Assembly: GCA_018402155.1 (NCBI GenBank)
Contig: JAGYJG010000001.1
Location: forward strand, 506,198-570,197
From: Bacteroidia bacterium
GTDB lineage: Bacteria > Bacteroidota > Bacteroidia > NS11-12g > UBA9320
Direction: 5' to 3'
Length of the DNA stretch: 64,000 nt
Every line of letters begins with the position of its first letter. The stretch's first letter is position 1. Shown piece by piece: positions 1 through 41,299 of the stretch. The notes beneath the pieces were generated by a model that saw nothing but the letters and a program-made list of their open reading frames with translations, had not been told where the DNA came from and did not search any database. Both the position numbers and the translations under genes were made by a program.

Positions 1-1
1 A

Positions 2-163
2 GCAGATTTGTACCCCCGCTTTGCTCCTACTATGGAATGGGATACTGCTGCCGCTCACGCCATATTAAATAGTTTGGGATACAAAATTTTTCAAAAACAG
101 ACCAAATCTGAGTTAATCTACAACAAAGAGAACTTACTAAATCCAAATTTTATTTGTTTTTGA
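2..163 (+). CDS. cysQ: 3'(2'),5'-bisphosphate nucleotidase CysQ, C-terminal fragment; the gene begins upstream of the window
   Basis: Frame 2 reads ...ADLYPRFAPTMEWDTAAAHAILNSLGYKIF...ICF*. The LYPRF(G/A)PT-x-WDTAAG/AHA motif is the conserved C-terminus of the CysQ/inositol-monophosphatase family. Stop at 161-163. Confidence 0.65.
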   Translation, partial: ADLYPRFAPTMEWDTAAAHAILNSLGYKIFQKQTKSELIYNKENLLNPNFICF

Positions 164-570
164 GTAGTGAAGATGCCTTCGGACTAAATATATATTCTAA
201 TGGTGGCTTGGTTGCTTTTAAGAAAAATACAGTATAAATCCATAGAATAGAAATTAGCACGATTAGGAGTTTTTAATATCCCATTATTCATGGTAGTATA
301 CCTAAATGTTGTGCCAACTAGTCTTAAATGATTTCTCATTCTTAAACTTTTTCTTTTTTTGAATAAAATATATGGAATAGAAGACCAACCGGAGTATTAA
401 GTGTAACTTCGCCAATCTAATTTTTTAGAAATCTTACCCTATTAATGAATATTATCATAACAAAGAATCAGTCAATTAGTCTTACTACACATTCTGCGGT
501 TAAAAGTAACAATTGAGGTGAAAACTTCTTTTTCATTAAGGAGATTATTTAGACCAATACTCGTATAACT

Positions 571-1779
571 TTGAAGATTATATATATATCAAAATACGCT
601 TCATATGCCCCCTTTGGCATAGAAACAAGACACTTTTATTTGTCTAAGGAGTTTGCGCGGCTCGGATATGAGTCAGAAGTATATCTTTCGACGTCAAATC
701 ATAGTTTATCTCGGCTACCTGACCTTTTAGAAGATAATTTAAATGGCGTAGCTATTCATTGGATTCCAACATTACAGTACGCCAATGCGTATGGGTTGAG
801 AAGAATAATAAGCTGGTTTCATTTTGAGTATAGGCTAAGAAATCGGCTAAAAAACGTAAAACTTACATCTGATGATGTGGTTATTTGCTCTTCGTTGTCA
901 TTGCTAACCATTTTGACAGGGATAAAACTAAAGAAAAAATGGAAATGCAAATTGGTTTTTGAGGTAAGAGATATATGGCCTTTGGTGCTCACACGGCTTA
1001 TCAATATATCAAAGAAAAATCCTATGTACCTTATGCTTAGATATATAGAGATGAAAGGTTACCGAAATTCCGATATACTTATAGGTACTATGCCAAATTT
1101 GGATGAACACGTAAGGTGTAGCTTGGGCTATACCAAAAAAACCTTATGGATTCCTCATCTTATAAATACGACGATATCTTACAAAACTACTCACCGATAT
1201 CAAAATGAGTTGTCAGAAATTAAAAAAAATGGAGGAAAAATTATTGGATATACTGGCAGTATAAATAGGTCTAGTGCATTGACTTATTTTTTGGATGCAG
1301 CTAAAGAATTATCAAATATTAAGGACAATATTCACGTTGTACTGCTGGGTGCAGGTCCTTCGCTTGTTGAGTTTAAGGAAAAGTATAAAGAAATAAGAAG
1401 TATTCATTTTTTTACTAAAATACCGCAAGATGAGGTGTTGGCATTTTGTCAAGATTGTGATGTATTGTATGACGGTTATTTGAAAAGCGAACTCTATAAA
1501 TATGGTAATAGCCGCAATAAATACGTAGAATACTGTTTGGCAAAACGACCAATACTACTAGCTTACGAGGGATTTAAGCATTTTGTAGAGGAGTATAAAT
1601 GTGGTTTAGTAGTGGCTCCAGAGTCTCACCTGGCTATTGTTGAAGGAATACGGACAGTCTTGAATAAAGAACCTAACATACTGGCTAAAATGGGAGAAAA
1701 CGCTCTTATTTTTGCACAACAAACCTTAAGTACAAATTGGCACGTAGATCGTTTAATTAAAGAAATAAATAGTGTATAA
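571..1779 (+). CDS. glycosyltransferase family 4 (GT-B, group 1)
   Basis: 402 aa. N-terminal GT4-type Rossmann start, C-terminal 'GYTGS...EG' GT1 region. TTG start at 571 with no in-frame ATG until far downstream. Stop overlaps the next gene. Confidence 0.7.
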
Positions 1780-2374
1780 GGACATAAAGCGTATCGTTGA
1801 TATTATGATTTCTCTTGTCGTTATTGTGCTGGCATCGCCATTATTTTTACTAACGGTATTACTTTTAAGCTGGGTTAATGGGGGTAGTCCTTTTTTTACT
1901 CAAATGCGACCAGGAAGATTTGACATACCCTTTAAGCTTCTAAAGTTTAAAACAATGAACGATAAGTGCAATGATAGTGGTGAGCTTCTAGATGATGCGC
2001 AGCGACTAACTGCAATAGGTAGAATAGTACGAAAACTGTCATTGGACGAGCTTCCTCAGCTTTTTAATGTTTTGAAAGGTGATATGTCACTTATTGGCCC
2101 TAGACCCCTATTAATGGATTATCTACCACTTTACAATGAGCAGCAGAAAAGACGTCACGAGATAAAACCCGGTATCACTGGCTGGGCGCAGGTAAATGGA
2201 AGAAATGCTAATAGCTGGAAGAAAAAGTTTGAACTAGACGTTTGGTACGTTGACAATTGCTCGTTTACTTTGGATTGTAAAATTTTGCTACTGACAGTTA
2301 TAAAGGTTTTGCAAAGTGACGGAATAAATTCCAAAACTGCTTCTACAATGGAAAAATTTAAAGGAACAACATGA
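1772..2374 (+). CDS. pglC: undecaprenyl-phosphate sugar-1-phosphate transferase, PglC-type small bacterial sugar transferase
   Basis: 200 aa. Near-colinear with Campylobacter PglC as I recall it (MY..I.KRI.D...aLvv.vL.SP...TALLL; FTQ.RPG; [30 protein letters not shown]; [14 protein letters not shown]; [10 protein letters not shown]). GTG start at 1772, 8-nt overlap with the upstream GT. Confidence 0.85.
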
Positions 2375-2958
2375 TTTTATTTGGAACGAATGGACATGGG
2401 AAGGTAGTATACGATGCTTTGAAACGTCAGGCGCCCTTATTTTTTGACGATAATGAGTCAATTTTAGTTTTTCTAGATAAAAAAGTAGTAAGATACCACA
2501 GAGATATTCTGCCAGAAGAAAAGGTGTTAATTACCATAGGAAACAATAAAATACGTTTTTCTGTGGCTAAAAAACTAAAACATTCTGTAGGTCTTTTAAT
2601 TGCCGATACTGCGTGTGTAAGTTCGATGTCAGAAATATTGGAGGGTAGTCAAATATTGCAAGGTACTGTTATACAAGCGGGTGTTAAAATCGGAAAACAC
2701 GTCATAGTAAATACTGGAGCAAGCGTAGACCATGATTGTGAGATAGACGATTTTTGTCATATAGCACCGCAAGCAACCTTGTGCGGCAATGTAAGGGTAG
2801 GAGAAGGAACAATGATAGGAGCAGGCACTACTATCATTCCGGGTATTTCCATTGGCAAATGGTGTACAATAGGTGCCGGTTCTGTGGTTATCAATGATAT
2901 ACCTGATCACGCTACCGTTGTAGGAAATCCGGCAAGAATCATAAAGATAAATGAATAA
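2371..2958 (+). CDS. sugar N/O-acetyltransferase, NeuD/PglD/WbpD family (left-handed beta-helix hexapeptide)
   Basis: 195 aa. N-terminal Rossmann-like 'FGTNGHG' then hexapeptide repeats ([25 protein letters not shown]...[25 protein letters not shown]). Architecture matches PglD. 4-nt overlap with pglC. Confidence 0.75.
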
Positions 2959-3102
2959 ATTAAGGACAAACGTACAACCTCTAAACTTGCAAGTAAAAGT
3001 ACTAGTTGCCACTAAAGAAGTGCCTATTTGTTTAGTTGACCGTGTAATCTTGCTGCTTTGCGATCTACGCCCTCACTACCATTGTGCTTTAATCAAAATA
3101 TT

Positions 3103-4278
3103 TTGAAAGTTTTATATTTTTTAACGAATTATCCGTCTTATTCAGAAACGTTTATTGCTGAAGAGATAAACCAACTTCGTGCACTTGGCCACACACCCAT
3201 TATATGTAATTTTACGTTTAAAACAGATGCACAACTAGACTCTGATTTTAAAATCCGAAACAACTCCAAAAATGTCTTCACTCTTTTCAAAGCTATTTAT
3301 GAGAATTCATTAGATGGGGACTCTCTTTTTTTTAATATATCTTTTTTACGTGCCATTATTTCTAGTATTCTACAAAAACCGAAATACTTTCTGAAATATG
3401 TATTTATGCTATTAAGTTCAGACTATATGCTGCAGCAAGCCAAGAAGGAGAATGCAGAGATGGCGGTTAATCATTTTTTATTTAAATCTACGCTGGCAGG
3501 GAGTTTTATTTGTGAAAAACTCAGTTTGCCCTATCATCTTAGATTACATACAAAAAATTACTTTTATGATGACAAACAATTGGCTCGGATACTTTTTAAT
3601 GCGCAAAGAGTGACAGCAATAGCGATGGATGTTAAATCATTTTATGAGGCAAAACTTGGTACTCTAGTTATCGATGTGGTGCGTCAAAGTGTAGACATTT
3701 CTTTTTTGACAGGATTGAATTCAGCCCCGAAAAATTCATCTATTTGTAAAATTATTTGTATTGGCCGTCTAGTCAAAAAGAAAGGCTTCAATTATCTAAT
3801 AGGTGCATTGGGAGAGATAAAAAAAAATAATGTGACAAATTGGAAATTAGATATTTATGGTGATGGTGCAGAATATTCTTACTTAGATAGTTTAATAGTT
3901 GCGCATGGGCTATCAGAAAATGTAAAGCTCTGGGGTCAAAAAAAACATGCTGAACTAATGATACTACTCGCTCAATCAGATTTATTAGTAGTGCCTAGTG
4001 TAGAAATGAAAAATGATATCGATGGGATTCCAACGGTACTTATAGAAGCCATGCTCATGAGGATACCAGTCTTGGCTTATAATACAGCTGGCATTCCCGA
4101 AATAGTTGTATCAGATAAAACTGGCTTTTTGGTAGAAGCAAAAAATATAAAGGAATTGAGCGATAAGCTGATTTATCTCATAGAAAATCCAACGATACGG
4201 CAAAGTGTGGTAGAGCAGGCATATAGCCATGTGCTCAAAGAATATAAAAGGAATTTGGCCAATGAATTTTTCCTCTAA
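3103..4278 (+). CDS. glycosyltransferase family 4
   Basis: ORF 3058-4278. The only plausible starts are TTG codons at 3058 or 3103 (giving MKVLYFLTNYPSYSETFI, a typical GT4 N-terminus). C-terminal 'EAMLMRIPVLAYNTAGIPEIV' GT1 signature. Confidence 0.65.
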   Translation: MKVLYFLTNYPSYSETFIAEEINQLRALGHTPIICNFTFKTDAQLDSDFKIRNNSKNVFTLFKAIYENSLDGDSLFFNISFLRAIISSILQKPKYFLKYVFMLLSSDYMLQQAKKENAEMAVNHFLFKSTLAGSFICEKLSLPYHLRLHTKNYFYDDKQLARILFNAQRVTAIAMDVKSFYEAKLGTLVIDVVRQSVDISFLTGLNSAPKNSSICKIICIGRLVKKKGFNYLIGALGEIKKNNVTNWKLDIYGDGAEYSYLDSLIVAHGLSENVKLWGQKKHAELMILLAQSDLLVVPSVEMKNDIDGIPTVLIEAMLMRIPVLAYNTAGIPEIVVSDKTGFLVEAKNIKELSDKLIYLIENPTIRQSVVEQAYSHVLKEYKRNLANEFFL

Positions 4279-5428
4279 CAAAGAAAAAAGAACTATAGCA
4301 TTTCTTTTTAGTGGCGATTTTCCTGAGGGAAATACCAAAAATGCACGCTTAAAAGTCTTAATCGATGGATTGAAAAAACACCATTGGGAACCTACTGTTT
4401 TTTCTGTATATCCATCTAAGTTTTCAGCCACTATACCTACTGCTCAACCAAAACATTGGAATAATACAGCAATTTCGTACTTTAGTATTTCACGAAGATA
4501 TTGGAGACATAAACCTTTTCGTCTTGTCCAAGTTCTTTTTTCACATGTTCATCTGCTTTGTTGGTCACTACTATTTGCGCATAAATATGATGTTTTTTAC
4601 TACTATAACCCCCGTTTTACGGACACGCTTCCGTCCTTACTTTTACAACGTATCCTTGGTAGAAAAGTAGTTGTAGACCAAACAGAGCTTTTTAGCTCAG
4701 GAAAAAATAAAACCATTCATTTATTAGAAGAAAAGCTCATAGCCCGACATTCATCTGTCCTACTTGTAATTTCAGATAAATTAATGAAATACTATCTAGA
4801 ATTTAGACAAAGAAATATATATAAGTTTCCAATTATTGTAGATTTTAAGAGGTTTGATGTTGTTGCAAATGAGCAAGAGCATCTAATAGGATATATTGGC
4901 TCTTTTGCCACAAAAGATGGAATAAATGTTCTTTTGGATGGAGTAAAAAAAGCCAGAAGTAAGTTACCTCAACTCAGGTTGAGACTTATAGGATACAATC
5001 CAAATATGAGAGCTTTACAGGAGTTATGTGCATTTAAAGGAATGTCAGAAAGCGTAGAAATAACTGGAACAGTGGCCTATGCCGAAATACCTTACTTGCT
5101 AAATGAGTGCGATACCTTTCTGATGAACAGGAGTAAGGATGCTTTTTCGACTTATGGTTATCCTATAAAACTAGGCGAATATTTTGCTTGCAGAAAACCA
5201 ATTTTGATGAGTGATGGCGTGGGGTTTTCGCAGGAGTTTGTGCACGGTGTGGAGGTTTATAAATTTGAAGAGGAAAATGCTGAATCACTAGCTACTGCAT
5301 TACTTAATAGGTATAAAAATAGGGAGGTAAGTGATGAAATTGCTAGACGTGGATTTACATTCTCTAGGCAGCATTTTGACGGAGAAAAAATGGTAAAATT
5401 TTTAAACCAAATTTTAATGAAATTATGA
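4262..5428 (+). CDS. glycosyltransferase family 4
   Basis: ORF 4229-5428. The internal ATG at 4262 (MNFSSNKEKRTIAFLFSGDFPEG) is more plausible and reduces overlap with the upstream gene. C-terminal 'GYPIKLGEYFACRKPILMSD' GT1 motif. Confidence 0.65.
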   Translation: MNFSSNKEKRTIAFLFSGDFPEGNTKNARLKVLIDGLKKHHWEPTVFSVYPSKFSATIPTAQPKHWNNTAISYFSISRRYWRHKPFRLVQVLFSHVHLLCWSLLFAHKYDVFYYYNPRFTDTLPSLLLQRILGRKVVVDQTELFSSGKNKTIHLLEEKLIARHSSVLLVISDKLMKYYLEFRQRNIYKFPIIVDFKRFDVVANEQEHLIGYIGSFATKDGINVLLDGVKKARSKLPQLRLRLIGYNPNMRALQELCAFKGMSESVEITGTVAYAEIPYLLNECDTFLMNRSKDAFSTYGYPIKLGEYFACRKPILMSDGVGFSQEFVHGVEVYKFEEENAESLATALLNRYKNREVSDEIARRGFTFSRQHFDGEKMVKFLNQILMKL

Positions 5429-6375
5429 AAAAAATAGCTGTGCTAGGAGGTGGTGGATTTATAGGTAACCATCTCATCAAAAGATTGAAACAAAATATTG
5501 TACACATAGTTGCTGTAGATCTGAAATACCCGGAGTTTGATAAAACAATGGCTGATGAATTTATAATTGGGGATCTCAGAAATCAAGAATTTGTCAAAAA
5601 AATACTCGCAATTCATTTTGATGAAGTGTATCAACTAGCGGCAGATATGGGAGGAGCAGGTTATATTTTTGTAGGTGAAAACGATGCAGATATTATGCAT
5701 AATTCAGCTCAAATAAATATCAATGTAGCAGAATGTTTGAAAAATACTAAAACTAGGGTTTTTTATTCATCTTCGGCATGTATTTATCCTGAAGAAAATC
5801 AAATGGATGCTCAAAATCCAAATTGTGCAGAGGCTTCCGCTTTTCCGGCAAATCCAGATAGTGAGTATGGTTGGGAAAAATTATTTAGTGAAAGGCTTTA
5901 TCTGAGTTATTATAGAAATTATGGATTAGATGTTAGAATAGCGCGTTTTCATAATATTTTTGGTCCATTGGCTGCTTATGAGGGAGGTAGAGAAAAAGCT
6001 CCCGCAGCTATTGTACGCAAGGTTGCCTTGGCGAAAGATGGAGATGAGATAGAGGTTTGGGGCTCTGGCTATCAAACTCGTTCTTTTCTTTATATCGATG
6101 AATGTTTAGAAGGTATACTAAGACTAATGGAATCTGATATAATAATGCCCATAAATATAGGTTCAGCAGAGATGGTTACTATCAATGAACTTACGGCTAT
6201 GGTAATAGGCATAAGCGGAAAAACACTGACTATCAAAAATATTGATGGACCAGTTGGGGTAAATGGCAGATGCTCAGACAATAAACTTATTGCTAATAAA
6301 CTGCAATGGCAACCTAATTTCCCACTCCATAAAGGGATGGAAATTCTATATAATTGGGTTCATTCTAAACTTTAA
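5425..6375 (+). CDS. GDP-mannose 3,5-epimerase (GME) family NAD-dependent epimerase
   Basis: 316 aa. GxxGxxG (GGGGFIG), LAADMGG, SSSACIYPE, YGWEKL, RIARFHNIFGP, GGREKAPAAIVRK, WGSGYQTRSFLYIDECLEGILRL, PINIGSAEMVTINELTAMV and GPVGVNGRCSDNKL all align with plant GDP-mannose 3,5-epimerase as I recall its sequence. 4-nt overlap with the upstream GT. Confidence 0.8.
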   Translation: MKKIAVLGGGGFIGNHLIKRLKQNIVHIVAVDLKYPEFDKTMADEFIIGDLRNQEFVKKILAIHFDEVYQLAADMGGAGYIFVGENDADIMHNSAQININVAECLKNTKTRVFYSSSACIYPEENQMDAQNPNCAEASAFPANPDSEYGWEKLFSERLYLSYYRNYGLDVRIARFHNIFGPLAAYEGGREKAPAAIVRKVALAKDGDEIEVWGSGYQTRSFLYIDECLEGILRLMESDIIMPINIGSAEMVTINELTAMVIGISGKTLTIKNIDGPVGVNGRCSDNKLIANKLQWQPNFPLHKGMEILYNWVHSKL

Positions 6376-6422
6376 TTTTAACGTTACAAATAAATAATGG
6401 AAGTACATTTGTTGTAAAATAT

Positions 6423-7604
6423 ATGAACTTATCTTTTGATAATACAGAGGTAGCTTTTGCTCATAAAACGAATGCAGATTTAAAAAAGGCATACCGACTT
6501 TTTCAAACGTTTGGTTCTCCATTTTTAGTAAAATATGGTCCTAAACTCACCAATTTAGCACTGAATTTTGGTCTTCCCATAAAAGGTATTATCAAGAAAA
6601 CACTTTTTGCCCAATTTTGCGGTGGAGAGACTATAGCCGAGAGTTTTCCTTCTGCTAAACAACTTTATGAAAATGGTATCGGTGCAATTCTGGATTACAG
6701 TGTAGAGGGGGAGGGTACAGGAGAAAACTTCGCAAAAGCTTTTGGAGAGCTTCAAAAGGTGATTATAGAGGCTACCGATAAGCCAGAGTATCCGTTTGCT
6801 GTTTTTAAATGTACTGGTATTGGTAATTTTCAAATGCTAGCCAACGTTACCAGCGCTCTACGTAATGGTGCTGAAACGACATATAGAGACGAACTAGACT
6901 ATCAGCATTTTCGCTCGCGATTTGAAGCGCTCTGCAAATTGGCATACGAAAATGGCACTAAGCTTTTTGTGGATGCTGAAGAAACATGGATTCAAGACGC
7001 CATTGACGAAATAACATATCAGAATATGGCTAATTATAATATTGACAATACTATTTTGTACAATACTATTCAGCTTTATCGTAAAGAGCGTATACCTGAA
7101 ATGAAGTATAGAATAGAAGAAGCACGTATAGGTGGATATAAGATTGGATTTAAATTAGTGCGAGGAGCGTATATGGAAAAAGAAGCTGCTAGAGCAGCAG
7201 AATTAGGCTATCAAAATCCTATACATCGAAGTAAAAAAGAAACGGATGACGACTACAATGCAGCCTTAAAGCTTTGTTTCGAAAATAGAGACGTAGTAAG
7301 TATTTGTGCAGGTACCCACAACGAGGAAAGCTCGCTGATTTTGGCACATCTTTTAGAGAGTGGAGAAATAGATAGAAATGATGACCGATTTTGGTTTGCT
7401 CAGTTGTATGGAATGAGCGATCACATCAGCTATAATCTAGCTGCTTCTGGATACAACGTAGCTAAATATTTGCCTTACGGACCTATAAAAGAAGTGCTTC
7501 CTTACCTTAGCCGTAGAGCACAAGAAAACAGCAGTGTTAAAGGACAAGCTGGCAGGGAACTTACTTTAATAAGTGCGGAACTAAAACGTCGTCGATTGGT
7601 TTAA
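6423..7604 (+). CDS. proline dehydrogenase (monofunctional PutA-like)
   Basis: 393 aa. C-terminal 'AQLYGMSDHISYNLAASGYNVAKYLPYGPIKEVLPYLSRRAQENSS' is the Pro_dh family signature. Confidence 0.8.
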   Translation: MNLSFDNTEVAFAHKTNADLKKAYRLFQTFGSPFLVKYGPKLTNLALNFGLPIKGIIKKTLFAQFCGGETIAESFPSAKQLYENGIGAILDYSVEGEGTGENFAKAFGELQKVIIEATDKPEYPFAVFKCTGIGNFQMLANVTSALRNGAETTYRDELDYQHFRSRFEALCKLAYENGTKLFVDAEETWIQDAIDEITYQNMANYNIDNTILYNTIQLYRKERIPEMKYRIEEARIGGYKIGFKLVRGAYMEKEAARAAELGYQNPIHRSKKETDDDYNAALKLCFENRDVVSICAGTHNEESSLILAHLLESGEIDRNDDRFWFAQLYGMSDHISYNLAASGYNVAKYLPYGPIKEVLPYLSRRAQENSSVKGQAGRELTLISAELKRRRLV

Positions 7605-7902
7605 AGGACTATCGTCCAAACAGTAGCGTAATATCTTTGCCTTTTTGCTTTTTACTCGTTATGTGTGATCTATTTTTTGTGTTTTGGAAATAACTACTCA
7701 AGGCCATATTGCTGAAATCCATTTTGGTTGCACGTGCTGTTGACAAATCCAGGATAGCCTTCGAAACTTTATATATTGGCTAGTAAAATCAATCTGAAAA
7801 GCCATAAATATATACTTTATAGAATAGTCCAATGCAAGTAGAATTAACTTTCTTCTACTTATATTTATCTATTACTCGACCGCCAAATTAAGACGGATTG
7901 TT

Positions 7903-8388
7903 TCATAAAAGAGTATTTCCATGGTCTTTGTTTTTAATATATCCGTGGTCTACAGATAGGCTTTTCCCTTCAGCTGCTTTTTTGGCTAGCGTGTCACATA
8001 CTTCGTTTTCTGGTACGCCACTATGGCCTTTTACCCATACAAAATGTATACTGTACCTAGGGTATATGTCAAGAAACCGTCTCCATAAGTCATCGTTGGC
8101 TTTATTCTTAAATCCTTTTTTTACCCAGTTAAAAACCCACTTTTTTTCTACAGCGTCAATTACATATTTAGAGTCAGAGTAAATCACTATTTGTTTATCT
8201 TTAGCAAAATCATTGAGCATATGGAGTGCTTCTACTACGGCCAACAGCTCCATTCTGTTATTGGTTGTCTTTTTAAAACCTTGGCTTGCTGTTTTGCGTA
8301 TTTCACGCCATTTTAGCACTATTCCGTATCCTCCGGGTCCGGGATTTCCTAAGGCACTTCCATCGGTGTATATTTCTATTTTTTCCAC
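7903..8388 (-). CDS. rnhA: ribonuclease HI
   Basis: 161 aa. 'IYTDGSALGNPGPGGYG' and 'VKGHSGVPENEVCD' RNase H motifs. Confidence 0.9.
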   Translation of the reverse strand: MEKIEIYTDGSALGNPGPGGYGIVLKWREIRKTASQGFKKTTNNRMELLAVVEALHMLNDFAKDKQIVIYSDSKYVIDAVEKKWVFNWVKKGFKNKANDDLWRRFLDIYPRYSIHFVWVKGHSGVPENEVCDTLAKKAAEGKSLSVDHGYIKNKDHGNTLL

Positions 8389-14404: not shown

Positions 14405-14435
14405 TTGTCAAGTAAATAGGTTTAGGCTATATTTG
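14405..14435 (+). promoter_or_regulatory. Bacteroidetes sigma-A type promoter for recA (-33 TTG, about 20-nt spacer, -7 TATATTTG)
   Basis: TTG at ~14405-14407 and TATATTTG at ~14428-14435, about 25 nt upstream of the recA ATG. Matches the Bacteroidetes TTG-N19/20-TAnnTTTG consensus. Confidence 0.4.
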
Positions 14436-17371: not shown

Positions 17372-17914
17372 TTAAAACGAGTAATATGGCGAAATCATGA
17401 CATAGACCAATACCCCTGTAACTGCTACATAAAGCCAAATAGGAAAGGTAAATCGTACAATTTTTCGATGCTTGGCTATTTTTTGGTTTAATGCGTACCA
17501 AAAAGACAACAGAATCATGGGGAGTACAATGGCAGCAAGCACAATGTGAGTTATGAGTATGATATAGTACGCATAGCGCATTATGCCTGTCCCACCATAG
17601 GTTGTTTCGGGTACAAAAAAGTGGTATACGACATAACTGATAAGAAATAGTGCCGATAGACCAAAGGCTGTAAGGTTGAGTGCTTTGTGTGTATCTATTT
17701 TTTTAGCTTTTATAGCGCGCAAGGACAGCACCAAAAGTATAGCGCACGTACCGTTGATAATAGCGTGTAGCAGAGGTAGTTTGTATATAAAATCAGGAAA
17801 ATCTGAAGGAGGGTTTAGAACGCGCTTGTTGAGCAATACGACCAATAGAAATACAACAATGCCAACGATCATAGCTATTCTAAAAAATGCTTTATCACTT
17901 ATTTTATTCATCAT
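17372..17914 (-). CDS. DUF420 family membrane protein (cytochrome oxidase-associated)
   Basis: 180 aa, four TMs. DUF420-like size, topology and position directly after the SCO gene. Confidence 0.55.
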   Translation of the reverse strand: MMNKISDKAFFRIAMIVGIVVFLLVVLLNKRVLNPPSDFPDFIYKLPLLHAIINGTCAILLVLSLRAIKAKKIDTHKALNLTAFGLSALFLISYVVYHFFVPETTYGGTGIMRYAYYIILITHIVLAAIVLPMILLSFWYALNQKIAKHRKIVRFTFPIWLYVAVTGVLVYVMISPYYSF

Positions 17915-18575
17915 CTTTTGCTTCTAAATCTTTATAGGTTTTCAGAAGGAAACGAGCATCTTGTATCATTTCCATTATTTCTGTAATATTGAGTCCATCG
18001 TATATACCACGCACTCTAAAGTCTTTGTCTACCAGCATTACTTTCTCACTATGTATAAAATCATTTGTATCTGGCACTTCTTGTATTACTGCTTTATAGC
18101 TATCTCTGGCAAGATGATAGATTGTACTTTTTTTTCCGGTCAGAAATTTCCATTGTTTATCATTTATTTCAAACTTGTCTGCGTATGCTCTAAGCACATC
18201 TATGCTGTCGTTGTATGGATCTACTGTATGAGACAGAAAAAGTATATCAGTACTGTTTTCTAATTTTTGACTTGCTATTTTAAGGTGTCCATTGATGGTA
18301 GGACAGATATCTGGACATGAAGCGAAGAAGAAATTTGCAATAAAAACGCGGTCACCAATGCTGTCTCGTGTAAAATTAATTCCATTTTGATCGATCAAAG
18401 AAAACGAATCGATGGTATACGGAACCTCCTTACCCATTTCGTTAGTGGTATAGATGGGCAAATCGTTATATCCAAATTCTGACTTTTTGAGCAGTATACC
18501 AAACAATACTGGAAGGCCAAGAATGGCCAATATGACGGAGACTACGAGTATACGTCTGCCTGTAGATTGTTTCAT
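17904..18575 (-). CDS. SCO1/SenC family copper chaperone (thioredoxin fold)
   Basis: 223 aa. N-terminal TM, 'FFFASCPDICP' CxxxC copper-binding motif, conserved downstream His region. Confidence 0.85.
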   Translation of the reverse strand: MKQSTGRRILVVSVILAILGLPVLFGILLKKSEFGYNDLPIYTTNEMGKEVPYTIDSFSLIDQNGINFTRDSIGDRVFIANFFFASCPDICPTINGHLKIASQKLENSTDILFLSHTVDPYNDSIDVLRAYADKFEINDKQWKFLTGKKSTIYHLARDSYKAVIQEVPDTNDFIHSEKVMLVDKDFRVRGIYDGLNITEIMEMIQDARFLLKTYKDLEAKDDE

Positions 18576-18596
18576 ATATAAAAGAGGATAAAGTCT

Positions 18597-18953
18597 TTAA
18601 AAAGATCCCCAAAAATTACCCTCGTACATCATCCACACGAGAAAAAAAATAATAAAAAACATAGGCAATACAATCATAGAAGCTAAGCCAAGTTTTTCGT
18701 GTTTCATGTGCATAAATGTTCCGGTGATATAAATTGCCTTTACTACTCCAAGTGCAATAAAAATGATATTTCTTGCCATGGAGGGTTCCATTACGAAATA
18801 AAAGACAACGTCTATAATGGTAAGAACCAAAAGTATCCAGAATTTTTTCCAAATATCGGAGGTTCCGTGACTATGAACTTTAGGTACCCATACAGTTGGG
18901 TCATAATTTACTTCGTCGTGTATATCAACTTTTTGGTTTGAATGTGATGCCAT
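18597..18953 (-). CDS. cytochrome c oxidase subunit IV (caa3-type, bacterial CtaF/CoxD-like)
   Basis: 118 aa, three TMs. Position directly after the cox3 genes. Confidence 0.55.
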   Translation of the reverse strand: MASHSNQKVDIHDEVNYDPTVWVPKVHSHGTSDIWKKFWILLVLTIIDVVFYFVMEPSMARNIIFIALGVVKAIYITGTFMHMKHEKLGLASMIVLPMFFIIFFLVWMMYEGNFWGSF

Positions 18954-19016
18954 ATTTTACGTAATGATTAAATAATAAATAGTGTATTATGGTTAGAATA
19001 TTAGAAATTATCAAAG

Positions 19017-19814
19017 TTAGATAAGATAAAAGAATGTGAATACAAAAACCCAAACTAAATCAACAAAGTGCCAGTATAGGCCAACTTTTTCTACCATTTC
19101 ATAGTGTCCTCGTTTGGCATATGTACCTTTCAAGTTATTTATATAGACTATAATATTGAGCACTACTCCTGAGAAAACGTGAAATCCATGAAATCCTGTA
19201 ACCAAGAAAAATAAAGCTGCAAAAGAGGGTGGACCATAAGGATTAGCCCAAGGAGTAGCTCCAGCCGTAATAAAATTGGTCCATTCCCACGCTTGACAAC
19301 CCAAGAACATAAAACCACCTATAATAGTGTATAGCATCCATTTTGATACTGCTTTTTCATCACCTCGCTGTCCAGCTTCTACGCCTAACACCATTGTAAC
19401 ACTGCTCAATATGAGTATAAGTGTCATTAAACTTACGAATATGAGGGGTAGGTGCAGTCCATGTGCAAACGGAAAATGATTGAAAACTAAATCCGGTGAA
19501 GGCCATTGGTGCTCACTAAAAACAGTAAGTTCTCTAAGGGCTGGTATAAAGTGCTCGCCGTGGTGAGCATCAACACCTGGCGCAGCAAACTTCTCTTGTA
19601 TATTTTCACCAAATCCTAAGTCTAAGCTTTCTATTTGTTCAATTGGTGTAGACGGATTACTGTAGCGAATGGCTCCATATCCTATGAGCAAGGAGGAGAA
19701 CGTAAATGCATCTGATAATAGGAATACCCACATCATGAGTTTTCCATAACTTACATTGAAAGGCGAGTTTCCTCCGCCCCAAGTGCGAGATTTTGGTATT
19801 GTTTGTGTTGACAT
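19017..19814 (-). CDS. cytochrome c oxidase subunit III (long form)
   Basis: 265 aa polytopic protein. Conserved C-terminal 'HFVDLVWVFVFTFFYL' cox3 motif. Confidence 0.8.
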   Translation of the reverse strand: MSTQTIPKSRTWGGGNSPFNVSYGKLMMWVFLLSDAFTFSSLLIGYGAIRYSNPSTPIEQIESLDLGFGENIQEKFAAPGVDAHHGEHFIPALRELTVFSEHQWPSPDLVFNHFPFAHGLHLPLIFVSLMTLILILSSVTMVLGVEAGQRGDEKAVSKWMLYTIIGGFMFLGCQAWEWTNFITAGATPWANPYGPPSFAALFFLVTGFHGFHVFSGVVLNIIVYINNLKGTYAKRGHYEMVEKVGLYWHFVDLVWVFVFTFFYLI

Positions 19815-19817
19815 TAG

Positions 19818-20402
19818 TTAAAAATCGGGTGCAAAATATAAAAACAAATATAAATAAACCCATAAGAAGCCTACAAAGTGCCAATAAGTATTGCACATAC
19901 TGATTTGCAGAGTGTTTTTCTTATGAACTTGGAGTTTCATCGTTTTACCTAATATCACAGACAAATAGATGAGACCTCCGAAAATGTGTACTAAATGAAT
20001 GGCAGCTATAGCTATTAGAAAAGATGCAGAAACGCGATCTCCGTATTTTGGATTTACAAAGTGAAGCCCATTTTCCGATAATTGTACCCAGCCCATGTAC
20101 TGCGTAAAACCAAAAGCAATACCAAGAAGAATAGTCAAACTGAGTCCTATTTTTATACCAGTAATTTCATCCTTTTTCGCACTTCTGTAGGCATAAAGCA
20201 TAGTAATAGAACTTAGGAGAACAACGATGGTAGAATATAAAAATACCGAAGGTAGCTCAAAGTTATACCAATTTCCGTCGCCTTTTCGTACGATATAGGC
20301 ACTGGTAAGTCCAGAAAATAGCATCAAAATACCGAGTAACAGCAACCATAAACTAAATTTTTTAGGATGAACTCGGCCAGTGTATGTCAATTCTTCAGTC
20401 AT
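19818..20402 (-). CDS. cytochrome c oxidase subunit III (short form)
   Basis: 194 aa. 'YWHFVGFLWVYLYLFLY' cox3 C-terminal motif. A second cox3 paralogue is usual in Bacteroidetes caa3 operons. Confidence 0.8.
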   Translation of the reverse strand: MTEELTYTGRVHPKKFSLWLLLLGILMLFSGLTSAYIVRKGDGNWYNFELPSVFLYSTIVVLLSSITMLYAYRSAKKDEITGIKIGLSLTILLGIAFGFTQYMGWVQLSENGLHFVNPKYGDRVSASFLIAIAAIHLVHIFGGLIYLSVILGKTMKLQVHKKNTLQISMCNTYWHFVGFLWVYLYLFLYFAPDF

Positions 20403-20406
20403 AAGA

Positions 20407-21300
20407 TTATATTTTGTCTATGAGTAACACTATTAGCGCTAAAGGGTTGTAGACTATAGATGCAAACATTAGTTTTTTTGCTGCATCTATGGAGAGTGTC
20501 TTATACAGCTGATGTGCAAAGTAAACAAGTATTAAAGAGCCTATAGTAAGTAAGAAAATACTCAAAACACCGCTCATATTTATCGCATAAGGCAATGCAC
20601 TAATGGGCACTAGTAGGGTGGTTACCATTAGAATAAGAAGAGCAGTCGTTTTAGTTTTGCCTTTCTTTAAGGGTAAAAGCCGGTATCCTGCTTTTTTATA
20701 ATCGTCATCTAAAATCCAAGCTATAGCCCAAAAATGTGGAAATTGCCAAACGAACTGAATTAGGAAAAGTATGCCTGCAGCGGCAGAAAATCTACCCGTA
20801 GCTGCTACCCAGCCTAATAATGGGGGAATAGCACCAGGCACTGCACCTATATAAACTGCAACACTGGATACGCGCTTTAGCGGAGTATACAAAAATGCAT
20901 AACTTATCAATGATCCAATACCTAAAATTGCAGCATGTTGATTTAGGTAATAGCCCAATAAAAAAACTCCAAGTGCTCCAGTTAGGGTACAAAATATGGC
21001 CGCTTCCAAAACACTCATTCTGTTTTGTGCAAGTGGTCTGTTTTCCGTACGAGTCATAAGTATGTCATAGTTTTTTTCAATAATTTGGTTTAGTCCATTA
21101 GAAGATGCTACCACCAAAAAACCACCTAGTATAAGTGCAGTAAGTTCTACCCAATTTAGCGCACCCGAGAAACCAATTAAATAACCGAATACGGATGATA
21201 ATACGATTGTAAAGGTCAATCTGAATTTTATCAGTTGACTATAATCTGTTAACTTGGCTCTTATGCCCATATATTCAGTATGTATACTAGCTGATTTCAA
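20407..21300 (-). CDS. ctaB: protoheme IX farnesyltransferase (heme O synthase)
   Basis: 297 aa, UbiA-family polyprenyltransferase. Overlaps ctaA by 4 nt. Confidence 0.85.
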   Translation of the reverse strand: MKSASIHTEYMGIRAKLTDYSQLIKFRLTFTIVLSSVFGYLIGFSGALNWVELTALILGGFLVVASSNGLNQIIEKNYDILMTRTENRPLAQNRMSVLEAAIFCTLTGALGVFLLGYYLNQHAAILGIGSLISYAFLYTPLKRVSSVAVYIGAVPGAIPPLLGWVAATGRFSAAAGILFLIQFVWQFPHFWAIAWILDDDYKKAGYRLLPLKKGKTKTTALLILMVTTLLVPISALPYAINMSGVLSIFLLTIGSLILVYFAHQLYKTLSIDAAKKLMFASIVYNPLALIVLLIDKI

Positions 21301-22316
21301 TTGCTATTTGTAATTTTATTTACGGTTAAAAACGAAGTGCAAATATAAAATTGTATGACGAATATCGCTGCACCCATACTTATATGGAACAGTTTTGAAA
21401 TAGACGCCGTGGTGGGGTGTAAGGCTAGTGGTCCCCATACTAATTGAGCTATGCACAAAAACAGTATCCATTGGTACAATTTCTTTTTGTTGTTCTGTTT
21501 TTTTGCTACTATAAACTGGTAAATAGACATAACCAAAACGATAGAGCCAAGTACGGCGTGCCATTGGAAGGTGGGATACATTAGTTCAATTTTAGCTGCC
21601 ATGTCACCGATAGTAGGGAGTAAATCATACAATTCGCGTACTTCTGCTCCCAGTATTACCTGTATAGCTGTAAGTATGAGTAAAGCTGTTCCTATTTGTT
21701 TAGTTTTACTATCGTATTCTTCGACAATCTGAGAAATGGAATAGTGCCTGGCGAGTATAAAAAAACCAATACTAGCAAAAGCTGCAATAAAATGCAGTGT
21801 AACAATGCTGCCAATCAAGTTACTGTGAACTACCACTGCTCCCAATAGTGCATTGACCATTACAAAAATAAATCCAGCTAATGTATACCAAAATACGGGT
21901 TTATTTTTTCTAAAATACCTTAAACTCCATACAAAACATAGCAAAACTACCACACCTGTGAGTGCACCCCACAACCGATTTATATATTCTACATAGGCTT
22001 TAATTGCATTGAATTTGTGAGATTCTTCGACCTGTGTATTATTTCTGAGGGCATCAGCTTTTTTATTCCAGCCTATATGCTCTAGCAGTGATACAAATCT
22101 TTCATTTTTGGTAATCCGTTGCTCTTTAAAATAATTTTCGTAATCTGCTGGGAGTTCCTTTTCTGATAATGGTGGGATATACTCACCGAAACATTTAGGC
22201 CAATCTGGACAACCCATGCCACTGCCTGTACTACGCACCAATCCGCCAATCACAAATAACATAAAAATCAGTAATATGGATGTTCCGTTGAGTTGCTGAT
22301 ATGTTACTTTTTTCAT
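21297..22316 (-). CDS. ctaA: heme A synthase (COX15/CtaA family)
   Basis: ORF 21297-22337 begins with TTG. The in-frame ATG at ~22316 (MKKVTYQQLNG...) is the more likely start. Polytopic, conserved His residues in TM helices. Confidence 0.7.
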   Translation of the reverse strand: MKKVTYQQLNGTSILLIFMLFVIGGLVRSTGSGMGCPDWPKCFGEYIPPLSEKELPADYENYFKEQRITKNERFVSLLEHIGWNKKADALRNNTQVEESHKFNAIKAYVEYINRLWGALTGVVVLLCFVWSLRYFRKNKPVFWYTLAGFIFVMVNALLGAVVVHSNLIGSIVTLHFIAAFASIGFFILARHYSISQIVEEYDSKTKQIGTALLILTAIQVILGAEVRELYDLLPTIGDMAAKIELMYPTFQWHAVLGSIVLVMSIYQFIVAKKQNNKKKLYQWILFLCIAQLVWGPLALHPTTASISKLFHISMGAAIFVIQFYICTSFLTVNKITNSN

Positions 22317-22342
22317 TGTATTTAGGGTTTTGGGCAAAAAAA

Positions 22343-22375
22343 AGCCGTCTTCTGCAAAAAGACGGCTTTTTTGTC
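22343..22375 (-). terminator. intrinsic (bidirectional-type) terminator between coxI and ctaA
   Basis: 9-bp GC-rich stem AGCCGTCTT / AAGACGGCT with a 7-nt loop, followed on the minus strand by eight U residues. It sits in the ~69-nt gap between the coxI stop and the ctaA start. Confidence 0.55.
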
Positions 22376-22385
22376 TCTTGTTGTC

Positions 22386-24278
22386 TTATGCAGTTCTGGG
22401 TTTAAACCAGTTGCGGATTAAGTCGAAGAAGTTAGTGTTTTCTACCACTGATTCATCGTTGGTAGAGAGCACACTTTGTTTTTTAGTTTCAAATAGTTCT
22501 ACATCTTGTCCTTCGTCAGGTACATTTTGCATTTTAAAATCTTCTTCGTATGCAGGATTGCTGTAGTCATAAGCCCAACGGTATACTGTTGGTATTTCTC
22601 CTGGCCAGTTTCCGTGTATTCTTTCTACAGGTGTAGTCCATTCTAGGGTATTTGCCTGCCAAGGGTTCTGCGATGCTTTTTTACCAATGAATATGCTTGA
22701 AAAGAAATTGTAGATAAAAAGCAATTGTGCAATACCACCTAAAATAGCAGCAAGTGTCATTAGTACGTTAACATCTGCCCATACACCATACTCTGGAAGA
22801 AGCGTAAAAGCATAATATCTCCTAGGCACACCAGCTAAACCAATAAAGTGCATCGGGAAGAATACCAAATAAGCGGATATGAAAGTCAACCAGAAGTGAA
22901 GATAACCAAGAGGTTTATTCATCATTCTACCAAACATTTTTGGGAACCAGTGATAAATACCAGCTAGCATACCAAAAATGGCAGCACAACCCATAACTAT
23001 ATGGAAATGACCAACTACAAAATACGTATCGTGTAACTGAATGTCTAGCGTGGCATTTCCTAAAAATATACCTGTAAGACCACCAGAGATGAAGAAAGAT
23101 ACAAGACCAATAGCAAACATCATAGCATTTGTAAATCTGATGTTACCTCTCCAAAGTGTTGCTAGATAATTAAATGTTTTTACCGCAGAAGGTACAGCAA
23201 TTATGAGCGTAGTTACCAAAAATACTGCACCAAGAAGTGGATTCATTCCTGTGATAAACATATGGTGCCCCCAAACTATAAATGATAAGAATGCGATACC
23301 CAAAAGAGAGATGACCATTGCGGTATATCCAAAAATAGGTTTACGTGAATTTATGGCGATTACCTCTGAGGTAATACCCAAAGCAGGCATTATTATAATA
23401 TACACCTCTGGATGACCCAAGAACCAAAATAGATGTTGGAAGAGAACAGGACTTCCCCCGGTATGCTCTAAGGCACCTGCAGAACCTAGATAAATATCAG
23501 ACAAGTAGAAACTTGTTCCAAAGCCTCGATCAAACAAAAGAAGTAAACCACCTCCTAGTAAAACTGGGAAAGATAGCAGACCCAATACAGCAGTTAGAAA
23601 TAATGCCCAAACAGTGAGAGGTAAACGTGTCATTGACATCCCTTTTGTACGCATGTTTAACACTGTACTGATATAATTTATACCACCTAAAAGAGATGAT
23701 GCTATGAAGAGTATAATTGCTACTAGCCAGAGGGTCATCCCCATACCTGATCCTGGCATAGCTTTGGGTAGTGCACTTAGCGGAGGATAAATTGTCCAAC
23801 CTCCTGATGCAGGTCCTGTTTCTACAAATAATGACGAAAGTAACACTATGCTGCTAAGAAAAAAGAACCAATATGAAAGCATATTCATGAAGGGAGAAGC
23901 CATATCTCGGGCTCCAATTTGAAGTGGCAGAAGTAAATTGGCAAACGTGCCACTCAGACCTGCAGTGAGTACATAAAATACCATTATGGTCCCATGCATA
24001 GTCACTAATGCCATATAATATCCTGCATCCAATTTTCCATCTGGCGCCCATTTGCTTCCAAATAGCCACTCTAAAATAGGAAATGAAGTGTCTGGATAAG
24101 CTAATTGTAGTCGAAATGCAATAGACATTCCCATGCCAATTAGTCCCATTATAATTCCAGTTATCAAAAATTGTTTAGAGATCATCTTATGATCCATGCT
24201 AAAGACATACTTCGAGATGAAGGACTCTTTGTGGTGGTGATGTTCCTCTGTGTTTGCGTGTGCTACTGCTGTACTCAT
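22386..24278 (-). CDS. ctaD: cytochrome c oxidase subunit I
   Basis: 630 aa, 12+ TMs, conserved heme a/a3 and CuB His ligands (WFFGHPEVY, HHMF...). Confidence 0.95.
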   Translation of the reverse strand: MSTAVAHANTEEHHHHKESFISKYVFSMDHKMISKQFLITGIIMGLIGMGMSIAFRLQLAYPDTSFPILEWLFGSKWAPDGKLDAGYYMALVTMHGTIMVFYVLTAGLSGTFANLLLPLQIGARDMASPFMNMLSYWFFFLSSIVLLSSLFVETGPASGGWTIYPPLSALPKAMPGSGMGMTLWLVAIILFIASSLLGGINYISTVLNMRTKGMSMTRLPLTVWALFLTAVLGLLSFPVLLGGGLLLLFDRGFGTSFYLSDIYLGSAGALEHTGGSPVLFQHLFWFLGHPEVYIIIMPALGITSEVIAINSRKPIFGYTAMVISLLGIAFLSFIVWGHHMFITGMNPLLGAVFLVTTLIIAVPSAVKTFNYLATLWRGNIRFTNAMMFAIGLVSFFISGGLTGIFLGNATLDIQLHDTYFVVGHFHIVMGCAAIFGMLAGIYHWFPKMFGRMMNKPLGYLHFWLTFISAYLVFFPMHFIGLAGVPRRYYAFTLLPEYGVWADVNVLMTLAAILGGIAQLLFIYNFFSSIFIGKKASQNPWQANTLEWTTPVERIHGNWPGEIPTVYRWAYDYSNPAYEEDFKMQNVPDEGQDVELFETKKQSVLSTNDESVVENTNFFDLIRNWFKPRTA

Positions 24279-24301
24279 TATTTTAAATTTTACTTTATAA
24301 A

Positions 24302-40660: not shown

Positions 40661-41299
40661 TATGATGTGATAATTTTTCTCAAAAAGTATTTGCAAAGAA
40701 AACTAAAATTGTCACTTGCGGCAAATGAACCTTTGCCAAATGTAGTAAAGTCATACTTTATCTTGTATAATTTAAACTCATTATCGCAAAGCAATGGAAT
40801 AATTTGGAGGTAGTTGCCGATTAGAATCAGTTCTGTTTGCTAAGTAGTCTAAAGTTTCAAGTCATGATTTCTTTGCTGGTCCAAACACAATATATGTGAT
40901 ATATAATTGTTTTGTTTTTGGACAAATAAACGGAATAAATTCTTCATTATGTCAGTAACATTGTAAGTGTAACACCCCACCAAAGGGTAGTAATTTTGTT
41001 TTTCAGGAAACTAAAATATTGAAGTTTTTTGCTTCCTGACTTGTGAATATTTATCTTATCTCACTCAATTCATTATCAAATAGCGTAACACCTCAAAATA
41101 TAATGCAGAATTGTATTAAAAATACTGTAAAGTAATAATTGGAATAAAAGATTAATCTTTACTTACAGCATTCTTTCTTGCTTCTAAAAATTTGTTATTC
41201 GGTAGTTTATGTATCTTTTTGCGTAGTAAAGCCAAAACCTCATCAAATGACTTTGGCGGCTTTATAATTATGGTAAATTTGCGCTAGAAAAATAGAATT

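Follow-up and report, generated by a model that had tools for sequence, protein, structure and literature searches.

A predicted GDP-mannose 3,5-epimerase at the end of a glycan gene cluster in a bacterium of the Bacteroidota

A six-gene glycan locus and its last gene

We analyzed a 64-kb stretch of DNA (64,000 nt, here called the window) from a Bacteroidia bacterium. Close to its 5' end lie six tightly packed glycan genes:

571..1779, + strand: GT4 glycosyltransferase, 402 aa; first gene of the reduced locus
1772..2374, + strand: small PglC-like polyprenyl-phosphate sugar-phosphate transferase (Bac_transf), 200 aa
2371..2958, + strand: PglD/NeuD/VioB-family sugar N-acetyltransferase with hexapeptide repeat and PglD_N (TIGR03570, 203 bits versus a cutoff of 161)
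3103..4278, + strand: GT4 glycosyltransferase, 391 aa by gene call; longest ORF starts at 3058
4262..5428, + strand: GT4 glycosyltransferase, 388 aa by gene call; longest ORF starts at 4229
5425..6375, + strand: extended SDR of the GDP-mannose 3,5-epimerase (GM35E/GME) family, ATG start, 316 aa

The upstream GT4 gene ends 4 nt inside the GME gene, its stop overlapping the GME ATG (aaattATGAaaa, ATGA), and is in turn overlapped by 17 nt by the glycosyltransferase (GT) gene at 3103..4278. An unrelated proline dehydrogenase (ProDH) gene starts 47 nt 3' of the GME gene; 5' of the first GT4 gene there is ~400 nt of non-coding DNA and then the 3' end of an upstream gene. The original prediction described the GME gene as the last of a glycan locus, with a start overlapping the preceding GT. 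Both features are real, and both are kept in relatives at 72-82% identity, which come from metagenome assemblies and retain the order GT-GT-GME-ProDH together with the 4-nt overlap.

Within the locus, GME is the most conserved protein (82%, versus 49-65% for the GTs, the PGT and the AcT and 71% for ProDH), which indicates strong purifying selection. The syntenic relatives also have genes for a DegT aminotransferase, Wzy and extra GTs. Because these are absent from the window locus, some steps of the pathway may be missing, or may be encoded elsewhere in the genome. The PglC-like transferase at 1772..2374 is the priming enzyme of the glycan.

Horizontal transfer of the locus is unsupported, given a GC content of 35.3% compared to 37.0% in the rest of the window and conserved synteny with relatives. 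Scans of positions 1-8000 for sigma-70 promoters (35 found versus 31.5 expected) and for intrinsic terminators (4 found versus 4.6 expected) were at chance, both methods being uninformative for a Bacteroidota genome. The TAnnTTTG motif is enriched in the window, and the window also encodes a CHU_C type IX secretion domain; both, like the names of the nearest homologues, point to Bacteroidota.

Family membership of the 316-residue product

The proposal of a GME had been based on a block-for-block match to six motifs, and all six are located in the 316-aa product of 5425..6375: LAADMGG (residues 71-77), SSACIYPE (116-123), RIARFHNIFGP (171-181), GGREKAPAA (187-195), WGSGYQTRSFLYIDECLEGILRL (212-234) and GPVGVNGRCSDN (275-286). 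In an alignment to Arabidopsis GME (AtGME), the NAD+ motif GxxGxxG falls at G8, G11 and G14; this is the canonical form, whereas AtGME has GxxGxxA (PMC6678494). Other features are less specific. The Pfam domains of the product, PF01370 and PF16363, are common to the extended SDRs GalE, Fcl and UXS, the databases mostly give GME homologues the generic name 'NAD-dependent epimerase/dehydratase', and the best NCBIfam match by E-value is Fcl. All of these would also fit a mis-recognized SDR of another family, such as a GDP-L-fucose synthase (GMER/Fcl), GalE or UXS.

The scores argue against each of these families. As a GDP-L-fucose synthase the product reaches 105 bits versus a cutoff of 500 (NCBIfam NF047922), and as GalE 73 bits versus 262 (TIGR01179). 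The match to Arabidopsis GME, however, is far above chance: a phmmer search of the PDB returned 2c59 with E=3.4e-86, 293 bits and 47.6% identity over 307 aa. The next solved SDR family, UDP-xylose synthase (UXS; 4lk3), followed at E=1e-26 and 97 bits, leaving an E-value gap of ~60 orders of magnitude; a true UXS-like protein scores 380 bits to 4lk3. UXS is the nearest non-GME family both by sequence and by pattern scan, and forms a tier at 26-31% identity among the matches listed. Thus, the earlier view that this is a GME homologue and not a generic GalE or fucose synthase is borne out by the HMM comparisons.

The catalytic residues agree. Using the eight GM35E-defining residues listed in PMC8787198 (S/C/Y/K/N/K/R/R), we found all eight in the product. 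The catalytic triad for C4 oxidation and reduction is S117, Y148 and K152 (S143, Y174 and K178 in AtGME). The acid/base pair for the C3 and C5 epimerizations, Cys145/Lys217 in AtGME, is conserved as C119/K191, in keeping with the original prediction. The Cys-acidifying Arg is R282 (AtGME R306), the diphosphate-binding Arg is R219 (AtGME R243), and the conserved Asn is N177 (AtGME N203). This eight-residue signature is common to 47 of the 48 aligned loci at ≥40% identity.

GMER/Fcl/WcaG is an extended SDR like GME and likewise carries out 3,5-epimerization of a GDP-4-keto sugar by means of a catalytic Cys. It differs in using a His base and a Lys that acidifies the Cys, where GME uses a Lys base and an Arg; it also requires the Gmd product and NADPH, and reduces C4 (PMC8787198). 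Lys rather than His as the base is what sets GME apart from GMER (PMC8787198). The window protein has Lys191 at the His position, whereas the Fcl-like sequence L068 has C/H at the acid/base positions of the alignment. UXS-like loci have Thr/Glu in place of S117/C119 and no counterpart of Lys191, and relative to GalE the Cys/Lys pair is extra.

The product is predicted to fold as an extended-SDR Rossmann enzyme like the crystallized GMEs. Its AlphaFold model (pLDDT 93, pTM 0.91) superposes on 2c54/2c59 with a TM score of 0.94 and an rmsd of 1.6 Å, a likeness in fold that takes in the AtGM35E/GME structures (Q93VR3; 2C54, 2C59, 2C5A, 2C5E) and Myrciaria dubia GME (8SG0). The best 14 PDB structure matches are all GMEs, and below them identity falls to ≤26%.

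Place in the GME family and spread among bacteria

Phylogeny was assessed with a neighbor-joining (NJ) tree of 74 sequences and 200 bootstraps, a distance method only, with MfGM35E and BlmG left out. The query fell in a clade with AtGME, apart from UXS-like and Fcl-like sequences in 200/200 bootstraps; the outgroup was identified as UXS. Because the equivalog cutoffs, the catalytic residues and the tree all agree, the product of 5425..6375, judged by its sequence, genuinely belongs to the GME family.

Within the GME clade the query belongs to a bacterial subgroup (198/200 bootstraps) whose members share no more than 43-53% identity with AtGME. In the NJ tree the plant enzyme forms a single branch surrounded by prokaryotic ones, so the label 'plant-type' given to the gene at first is misleading. 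Nor are bacterial homologues uncommon, as had been stated: a threshold of E≤1e-30 is passed by ~800 clusters at 50% identity, from many phyla. The matches listed include GME-clade genes from Bacteroidota, Pseudomonadota, Acidobacteriota, Planctomycetota, Verrucomicrobiota, Chloroflexota, Actinomycetota, Cyanobacteria, Saccharibacteria and others. A word-index search yielded at least 8000 candidates, of which the best 120 were all at least 64% identical to the query. A literature search on the evolution of prokaryotic GMEs gave nothing relevant.

The window protein and AtGME are identical in the catalytic set and in the substrate-domain motifs, but the window protein is without the N-terminal (~28 aa) and C-terminal (~37 aa) extensions of the plant GME, and it is encoded in a bacterial glycan operon, where AtGME belongs to ascorbate or cell-wall metabolism. 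The only biochemically characterized bacterial GME is MfGM35E (I0K0X9) of Methylacidiphilum fumariolicum SolV (Gevaert et al. 2019, PMC6678494). Like the window protein, MfGM35E is of the short bacterial form, with conserved Ser/Tyr/Lys, Cys/Lys and Arg, although it comes from another phylum, being the enzyme of a thermoacidophile of the Verrucomicrobiota. Its gene also adjoins a glycosyltransferase, and a role in LPS or glycan synthesis has been proposed (PMC6678494). BlmG-type epimerases (BlmG, Q9FB21; L-gulose of bleomycin), found in Streptomyces natural-product clusters, belong to the GME clade as the query does, but are ~43% identical to it, lie in another subclade and serve the glycosylation of secondary metabolites, not surface glycans (PMC6678494). 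A Streptomyces homologue, L048, has the full S-C-Y-K-N-K-R-R signature and lies inside the GME clade of the NJ tree; we equate it with BlmG by inference.

Across the family, GT4, Bac_transf and WecG genes predominate in GME-clade neighborhoods, and glycosyltransferases are the commonest neighbors; about half of the neighborhoods are not obviously glycan loci. GDP-L-fucose, the product of GMER, is the 6-deoxy analogue of GDP-L-galactose. Some relatives tie GME to GDP-sugars. In a Cytophagales relative (L008), gmd (579 bits versus a cutoff of 415), fcl (504 versus 500) and GME stand in a row, which lends indirect support to the predicted conversion of GDP-mannose, and Flavobacterium endophyticum (L013) has a gene for a WcaI-family GT (289 bits versus 276) immediately upstream of GME. 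A relative with 59% identity to the query carries a NodZ-like (GDP-fucose-type) transferase domain in fusion with GME. The ~430-aa fusion partner in P0124, P0125 and P0128 gave no PDB or Pfam match.

Predicted function and what it means

We consider it quite probable that 5425..6375 encodes a functional NAD+-dependent GME (EC 5.1.3.18) whose product is used by a GT of the locus, leading to L-galactose (L-Gal) or L-gulose (L-Gul) in a surface glycan. If the mechanism follows that of its Arabidopsis homologue, Tyr148, Lys152 and Ser117, together with a tightly bound NAD+, would oxidize C4 of GDP-alpha-D-mannose. In the resulting 4-keto intermediate, the acid/base pair Cys119 and Lys191 would then invert C5 and C3, helped by Arg282, which lowers the pKa of Cys119, and the hydride would go back to C4 after epimerization. 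The expected outcome is an equilibrium mixture of GDP-mannose, GDP-beta-L-galactose and GDP-beta-L-gulose; the canonical mixture from GDP-mannose is roughly 80:15:5.

Because GME appears to be translationally coupled to the preceding GT4 and to close a PglC-primed glycan operon, a glycosyltransferase of the locus most likely draws off the product to give an L-galactose or L-gulose residue. The GT4 at 4262..5428 is the best candidate user because of the 4-nt overlap between its stop and the GME start. The recipient would be an undecaprenyl-linked surface glycan, either of the O-antigen/capsule type or a protein O-glycan. A profile search gave no equivalog-level assignment for the GTs beside GME, and it is therefore operon structure by itself that ties the product to a glycan. 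What the analysis shows is membership of the GME family, a complete set of catalytic residues, the fold, the place in the operon and the conserved synteny; we infer the true substrate and products, the L-sugar that is used, the GT concerned and the recipient glycan. That L-Gal or L-Gul is incorporated is a reasonable proposal. A literature search on L-galactose in Bacteroidota glycans gave nothing relevant.

As for the supply of GDP-mannose, Pfam annotation of 49 ORFs found none of manC, manA, gmd and fcl, and no NTP_transferase, within the 64-kb window. The window has two PGM/PMM-family mutases, one of which passes the GlmM cutoff; the other (47650-49047), which is unassigned, is the only one within the window that could supply mannose-1-P. 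A regular expression for nucleotidyltransferases (G-x-G-T-R-L-x-P) had 0 matches in 623 neighbor ORFs, but was too strict, as Pfam found two NTP_transferase domains.

An enzyme of the GME clade could have a shifted specificity, acting on another GDP-sugar (GDP-glucose, GDP-heptose or GDP-6-deoxyhexose) or giving essentially one product, for example GDP-L-gulose (suggested as the product of BlmG in the bleomycin pathway) by C5-only epimerization, or GDP-altrose by C3-only epimerization. The well-supported subgroup of the query and its distance from AtGME would allow for this, GDP-altrose is a known minor product, and a review considers that some homologues may be 3-epimerases or 5-epimerases only (PMC8787198). 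We nevertheless think it unlikely. The catalytic and diphosphate-binding residues and the motifs GGREKAPAA, QTRSF and GPxGVxGRxSDN are identical to those of the plant enzyme, a subgroup member adjoins gmd and fcl, which encode enzymes of GDP-mannose metabolism, and the plant and Methylacidiphilum enzymes, ~50% identical, agree in activity and product ratio.

It is less likely still that a functional GME supplies some other pathway encoded elsewhere, for a different glycan, a glycolipid or a small molecule, its operon position being mere genomic association. The reduced state of the window locus and the many neighborhoods that are not obviously glycan loci are compatible with this, as is the occurrence of L-gulose in archaeal lipids and of L-Gal/L-Gul in antibiotics (PMC6678494). 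However, the 4-nt overlap and the GT-GT-GME order are kept although the GTs have diverged to 49-57% identity, and GTs are the commonest neighbors family-wide. That the product is a GDP-L-fucose synthase, GalE or UXS is refuted by the scores, residues and clade separation given above, and by L008, which encodes a genuine Fcl beside its GME orthologue, so that the two functions are distinct; we assign it a negligible probability.

A functional GME serving the glycan of its own locus thus remains the preferred reading. A broader one, to which we give rather less than even credence, is that the gene marks a lineage-conserved L-Gal/L-Gul surface glycan of uncultured Bacteroidota. More generally, GDP-L-Gal/L-Gul-derived L-hexoses would be widespread, and largely overlooked, in bacterial and archaeal glycans, because the prokaryotic GME family is so large, and the fucosyltransferase-like GTs (the WcaI-family enzymes and NodZ-like fusions) would be L-galactosyltransferases.

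Conceptually nothing here is new, since the family, the way it works and its occurrence in bacteria were established before; because GMEs are common in bacteria, the annotation is sound but ordinary. GMEs are sought as biocatalysts for rare L-sugars (PMC8787198), and cultured carriers of the query subgroup, among the matches listed Flavobacterium endophyticum DSM 29537, Agrobacterium leguminum MOPV5 and Phenylobacterium sp. LjRoot225, offer easy test systems. For this genome, a generic 'NAD-dependent epimerase/dehydratase' call is upgraded to a specific and testable function, with the prediction that an L-hexose, L-Gal or L-Gul, is present in a surface glycan.

Identity of the 316-residue protein

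The open reading frame at window positions 5425-6375 (+) has 316 codons and an ATG start. From six motif strings, its product had been identified as a GDP-mannose 3,5-epimerase (abbreviated GM35E or GME) distinct from UDP-glucose 4-epimerase (GalE) and GDP-L-fucose synthase (Fcl, or GMER). All six strings are present, at residues 71-77, 116-123, 171-181, 187-195, 212-234 and 275-286, and a search of all PDB sequences agreed with the identification. The best matches were Arabidopsis GME (AtGME; 2c59, 2c54, 2c5a and 2c5e; E=3.4e-86, 293 bits, residues 3-314 of 316), with Myrciaria dubia GME 8sg0 at E=4e-83; the next family was human UDP-xylose synthase (UXS; E=1e-26, 97 bits), and GDP-fucose synthases gave E values of 1e-17 to 1e-20. 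The best NCBIfam matches fell far under the curated cutoffs (Fcl, 105 bits vs 500; GalE, 73 vs 262). NCBIfam has no GM35E model, and the protein and its relatives reach only the Fcl, GalE and RmlB models, all below threshold. Because of this gap, homologues across public genomes carry generic names such as 'NAD-dependent epimerase/dehydratase' and 'nucleoside-diphosphate-sugar epimerase', and occasionally 'GDP-D-mannose 3',5'-epimerase'.

A 2022 review lists the residues that define GM35E relative to GMER and GalE: the triad S143, Y174 and K178, the acid/base pair C145 and K217, R306, which acidifies the Cys, R243 for the diphosphate, and N203 (AtGME numbering; PMC8787198). In a HMMER alignment all eight are conserved, as S117, Y148, K152, C119, K191, R282, R219 and N177, and the acid/base pair is thus kept as C119/K191. 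Over 307 aligned positions the protein is 47.6% identical to AtGME; its NAD motif reads G8xxG11xxG14. An AlphaFold2 model from a 21-sequence alignment had a mean pLDDT of 93.1 and a pTM of 0.91. Searching the PDB with this model in Foldseek gave GME chains as all of the first 14 matches (TM 0.94, rmsd 1.6 A, 45-46% identity), whereas GalE, UXS and WbpP-type enzymes dropped to TM <=0.87 and <=26% identity.

Phylogeny and abundance of the family

Scanning GTDB species representatives with a sequence pattern gave at least 80 loci among the matches listed. By identity to the window protein they fell into three tiers (54-64%, 40-49% and 26-31%), and 74 of the extracted proteins were aligned with the AtGME segment. 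At eight diagnostic columns, S-C-Y-K-N-K-R-R was shared by 47 of the 48 sequences with >=40% identity, and the lowest tier read T-E-Y-K-N-(gap)-R-R. One low-tier representative matched human UXS at E=1.5e-113; the archaeal protein L068 carried C…H, the GMER signature, and scored best to Fcl. Neighbour-joining on 324 columns (Kimura distances, 200 bootstraps) recovered the clade holding the window protein and AtGME, and likewise the UXS-like clade, in 200/200 replicates, and the protein's own subgroup of 18 sequences in 198/200. This subgroup spans Chitinophagaceae, Cytophagales, Crocinitomicaceae, Flavobacterium and Bacteroidia, as well as Rhizobiaceae, Phenylobacterium, Desulfobaccales, Phycisphaerales, Acidobacteriaceae, Saccharibacteria and Cephaloticoccus. 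Because the protein lies outside the UDP-sugar 4-epimerases and GDP-fucose synthases and keeps its catalytic residues, neither observation that would speak against the original prediction was made.

The exception among those 48, a Gemmatimonadota MAG protein (L027:2856-3800), lies firmly within the GME clade at 44% identity to the window protein, but its catalytic positions are degenerate (C145 to S, Y174 to H, N203 to G, K217 to R); it is most likely a paralogue that is inactive or has been neofunctionalised.

AtGME was nested among prokaryotic sequences, and the label 'plant-type' is thus historical, not phylogenetic. A word-indexed search yielded at least 8000 scored candidates, all at E<=1e-10; the best 120 of these all align across their whole length at 64-100% identity and belong to Bacteroidota, Bacillota (Thermodesulfitimonas), Omnitrophota and Asgard archaea. 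When 1.84 billion 50%-identity representatives were searched exhaustively, about 800 clusters reached E<=1e-30, a threshold out of reach for matches at the level of UXS or Fcl (about 100 bits). Bacterial homologues had been described as uncommon and poorly characterised. The first term does not hold, given about 800 clusters; the second does, with one enzyme assayed. The Methylacidiphilum fumariolicum GME has been characterised biochemically, and descriptions also exist of BlmG, from the bleomycin cluster, and of a step of A201A biosynthesis that uses a GME (PMC6678494).

The glycan locus and its neighbourhood

Glycan locus genes, with boundaries from gene calls on the identical metagenomic contig L001 (GT4, glycosyltransferase)
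571-1779 (+), GT4
1772-2374 (+), small PglC-like Bac_transf phosphoglycosyltransferase
2371-2958 (+), PglD/NeuD-family acetyltransferase
3103-4278 (+), GT4
4262-5428 (+), GT4
5425-6375 (+), GME

These genes are joined by overlaps of 8, 4, 17 and 4 nt, with a single 144-nt gap; 5' of 571 lie ~400 nt of non-coding DNA and then the 3' end of another gene. The GME start codon and the upstream GT4 stop share 4 nt (…aaattATGAaaa…), and an unrelated proline dehydrogenase (ProDH) gene begins 47 nt after GME, in agreement with its predicted place as last gene of the locus. The Bacteroidota -7 promoter motif, TAnnTTTG, occurs 130 times in the window, compared with 90.6 +/- 10.1 expected (0/100 shuffles reach 130), and copies sit just 5' of the RNase P RNA gene and several start codons:

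6404-6411 (+), 12 nt 5' of the ProDH ATG
14428-14435, 41274-41281 and 43318-43325 (+), motif matches
57886-57893 (-), motif match

The position of the first copy suggests that ProDH is transcribed from a promoter of its own and that GME is the final gene of the glycan operon. We regard the protein's family membership, its intact active site, its fold and its operon position as virtually certain.

Three contig sets (including L082, L084 and L086) encode proteins 72-82% identical to the window GME, in the order GT4-GT4-Bac_transf-PglD-like-DegT aminotransferase-GT-GT-GME-ProDH-RNase H-FolC-(TonB-like)-ExbD-ExbB. GME, at 82%, is the most conserved locus protein (flanking ProDH, 71%). All three keep this gene order and the 4-nt GT/GME overlap, although GT identity has fallen to 49-57%; the link between GME and the glycan operon is thus stable across the lineage. 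The window locus is a reduced version of that in the relatives. In the relatives a DegT/PglE-type aminotransferase gene separates the PglD-like acetyltransferase from the following GT. In the window these two genes are only 144 nt apart (2959-3102), and tblastn found no DegT homologue anywhere in the 64 kb; the acetyltransferase would thus have to obtain its amino-sugar substrate from another source, unless the pathway is a changed one. The relatives' extra upstream GT4 genes and Wzy_C polymerase are also missing, with ~400 nt of non-coding DNA (171-570) in their place.

Among 49 window ORFs annotated with Pfam, none was manC, manA, gmd or fcl. Other genes of the window include:

17372-26125 (-), cytochrome c oxidase cluster (COX1, COX2, COX3, CtaA, CtaB, SCO1)
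47650-49047 (-), PGM/PMM-family mutase, under every NCBIfam cutoff
53828-53910 (+), tRNA-Leu(CAA)
57516-57884 (-), bacterial RNase P RNA class A
58511-59890 (+), PGM/PMM-family mutase, passing the TIGR03990 GlmM cutoff (archaeal-type equivalog; 517 vs 439)
60683-62752 (+), legume-lectin-domain protein with CHU_C type IX secretion signal

The mutase at 47650-49047 could be a phosphomannomutase feeding GDP-mannose synthesis, the only such candidate in the window. The two RNA genes, the lectin-domain protein and the oxidase cluster are consistent with an aerobic Bacteroidota genome.

Family-wide, the neighbourhood scan covered 121 ORFs at 17 subgroup loci and 115 at 31 further loci of the GME clade. 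Glycos_transf_1/GT4 was among the commonest neighbours (8 and 10, respectively), with Bac_transf/WcaJ-type proteins (3 and 3), WecG (2 and 6), nucleotide-sugar dehydrogenases, methyltransferases and carbamoyltransferases. A Cytophagales MAG (L008) has gmd (579 bits vs cutoff 415), fcl (504 vs 500) and GME in a row, by sequence assignment grouping GME with two other GDP-mannose-consuming enzymes; since both are encoded there, neither GME nor Fcl is redundant with the other. Flavobacterium endophyticum DSM 29537 (L013) has a WcaI-family GT (289 bits vs 276) directly upstream of GME. WcaI is regarded as a fucosyltransferase in colanic acid synthesis, and its relative here would fit an L-galactosyltransferase role because GDP-L-Gal is 6-hydroxy-GDP-L-Fuc. 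The 665-aa protein P0123 joins a GME domain (59% identical) to a C-terminal domain whose single PDB match is the NodZ alpha-1,6-fucosyltransferase (E=2e-4), with a weak precomputed Pfam NodZ match, a further hint of a fucosyltransferase-like partner.

P0123 is one of a set of multidomain relatives (P0123-P0128 and P0132, loci L087 and L088; GME domains 53-59% identical). P0127 carries a UDP-Glc/GDP-Man 6-dehydrogenase-family domain (E=4e-34), and P0124, P0125 and P0128 share a ~430-aa domain with no PDB or Pfam match.

Proposed role

The best-supported reading of the sequence is a functional GM35E. Y148, K152 and S117 would carry out NAD+-dependent oxidation at C4, C119 and K191, assisted by R282, would then epimerise C5 and C3, and re-reduction would close the cycle. 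A locus GT would pull the equilibrium by moving the L-hexose onto the PglC-primed, undecaprenyl-linked glycan, the translationally coupled GT4 at 4262-5428 being the most plausible user.

Homology spanning plants to Verrucomicrobiota makes the canonical substrate and products very likely; a substrate or product spectrum shifted within the GME clade is an unlikely alternative to them. Conserved gene order makes it probable, with less assurance, that the locus's own GTs use the product, and its use elsewhere seems more doubtful still than a shifted spectrum. Misassignment of an Fcl, GalE or UXS, the first two of which do draw sub-threshold NCBIfam matches, is effectively refuted.

The GM35E assignment is a correct and specific annotation within a known enzyme family that is abundant in prokaryotes and has a bacterial member already characterised. 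It exposes a systematic annotation gap, NCBIfam being without a GM35E model, points out cultured carriers of GME and predicts an L-hexose in a Bacteroidota surface glycan.
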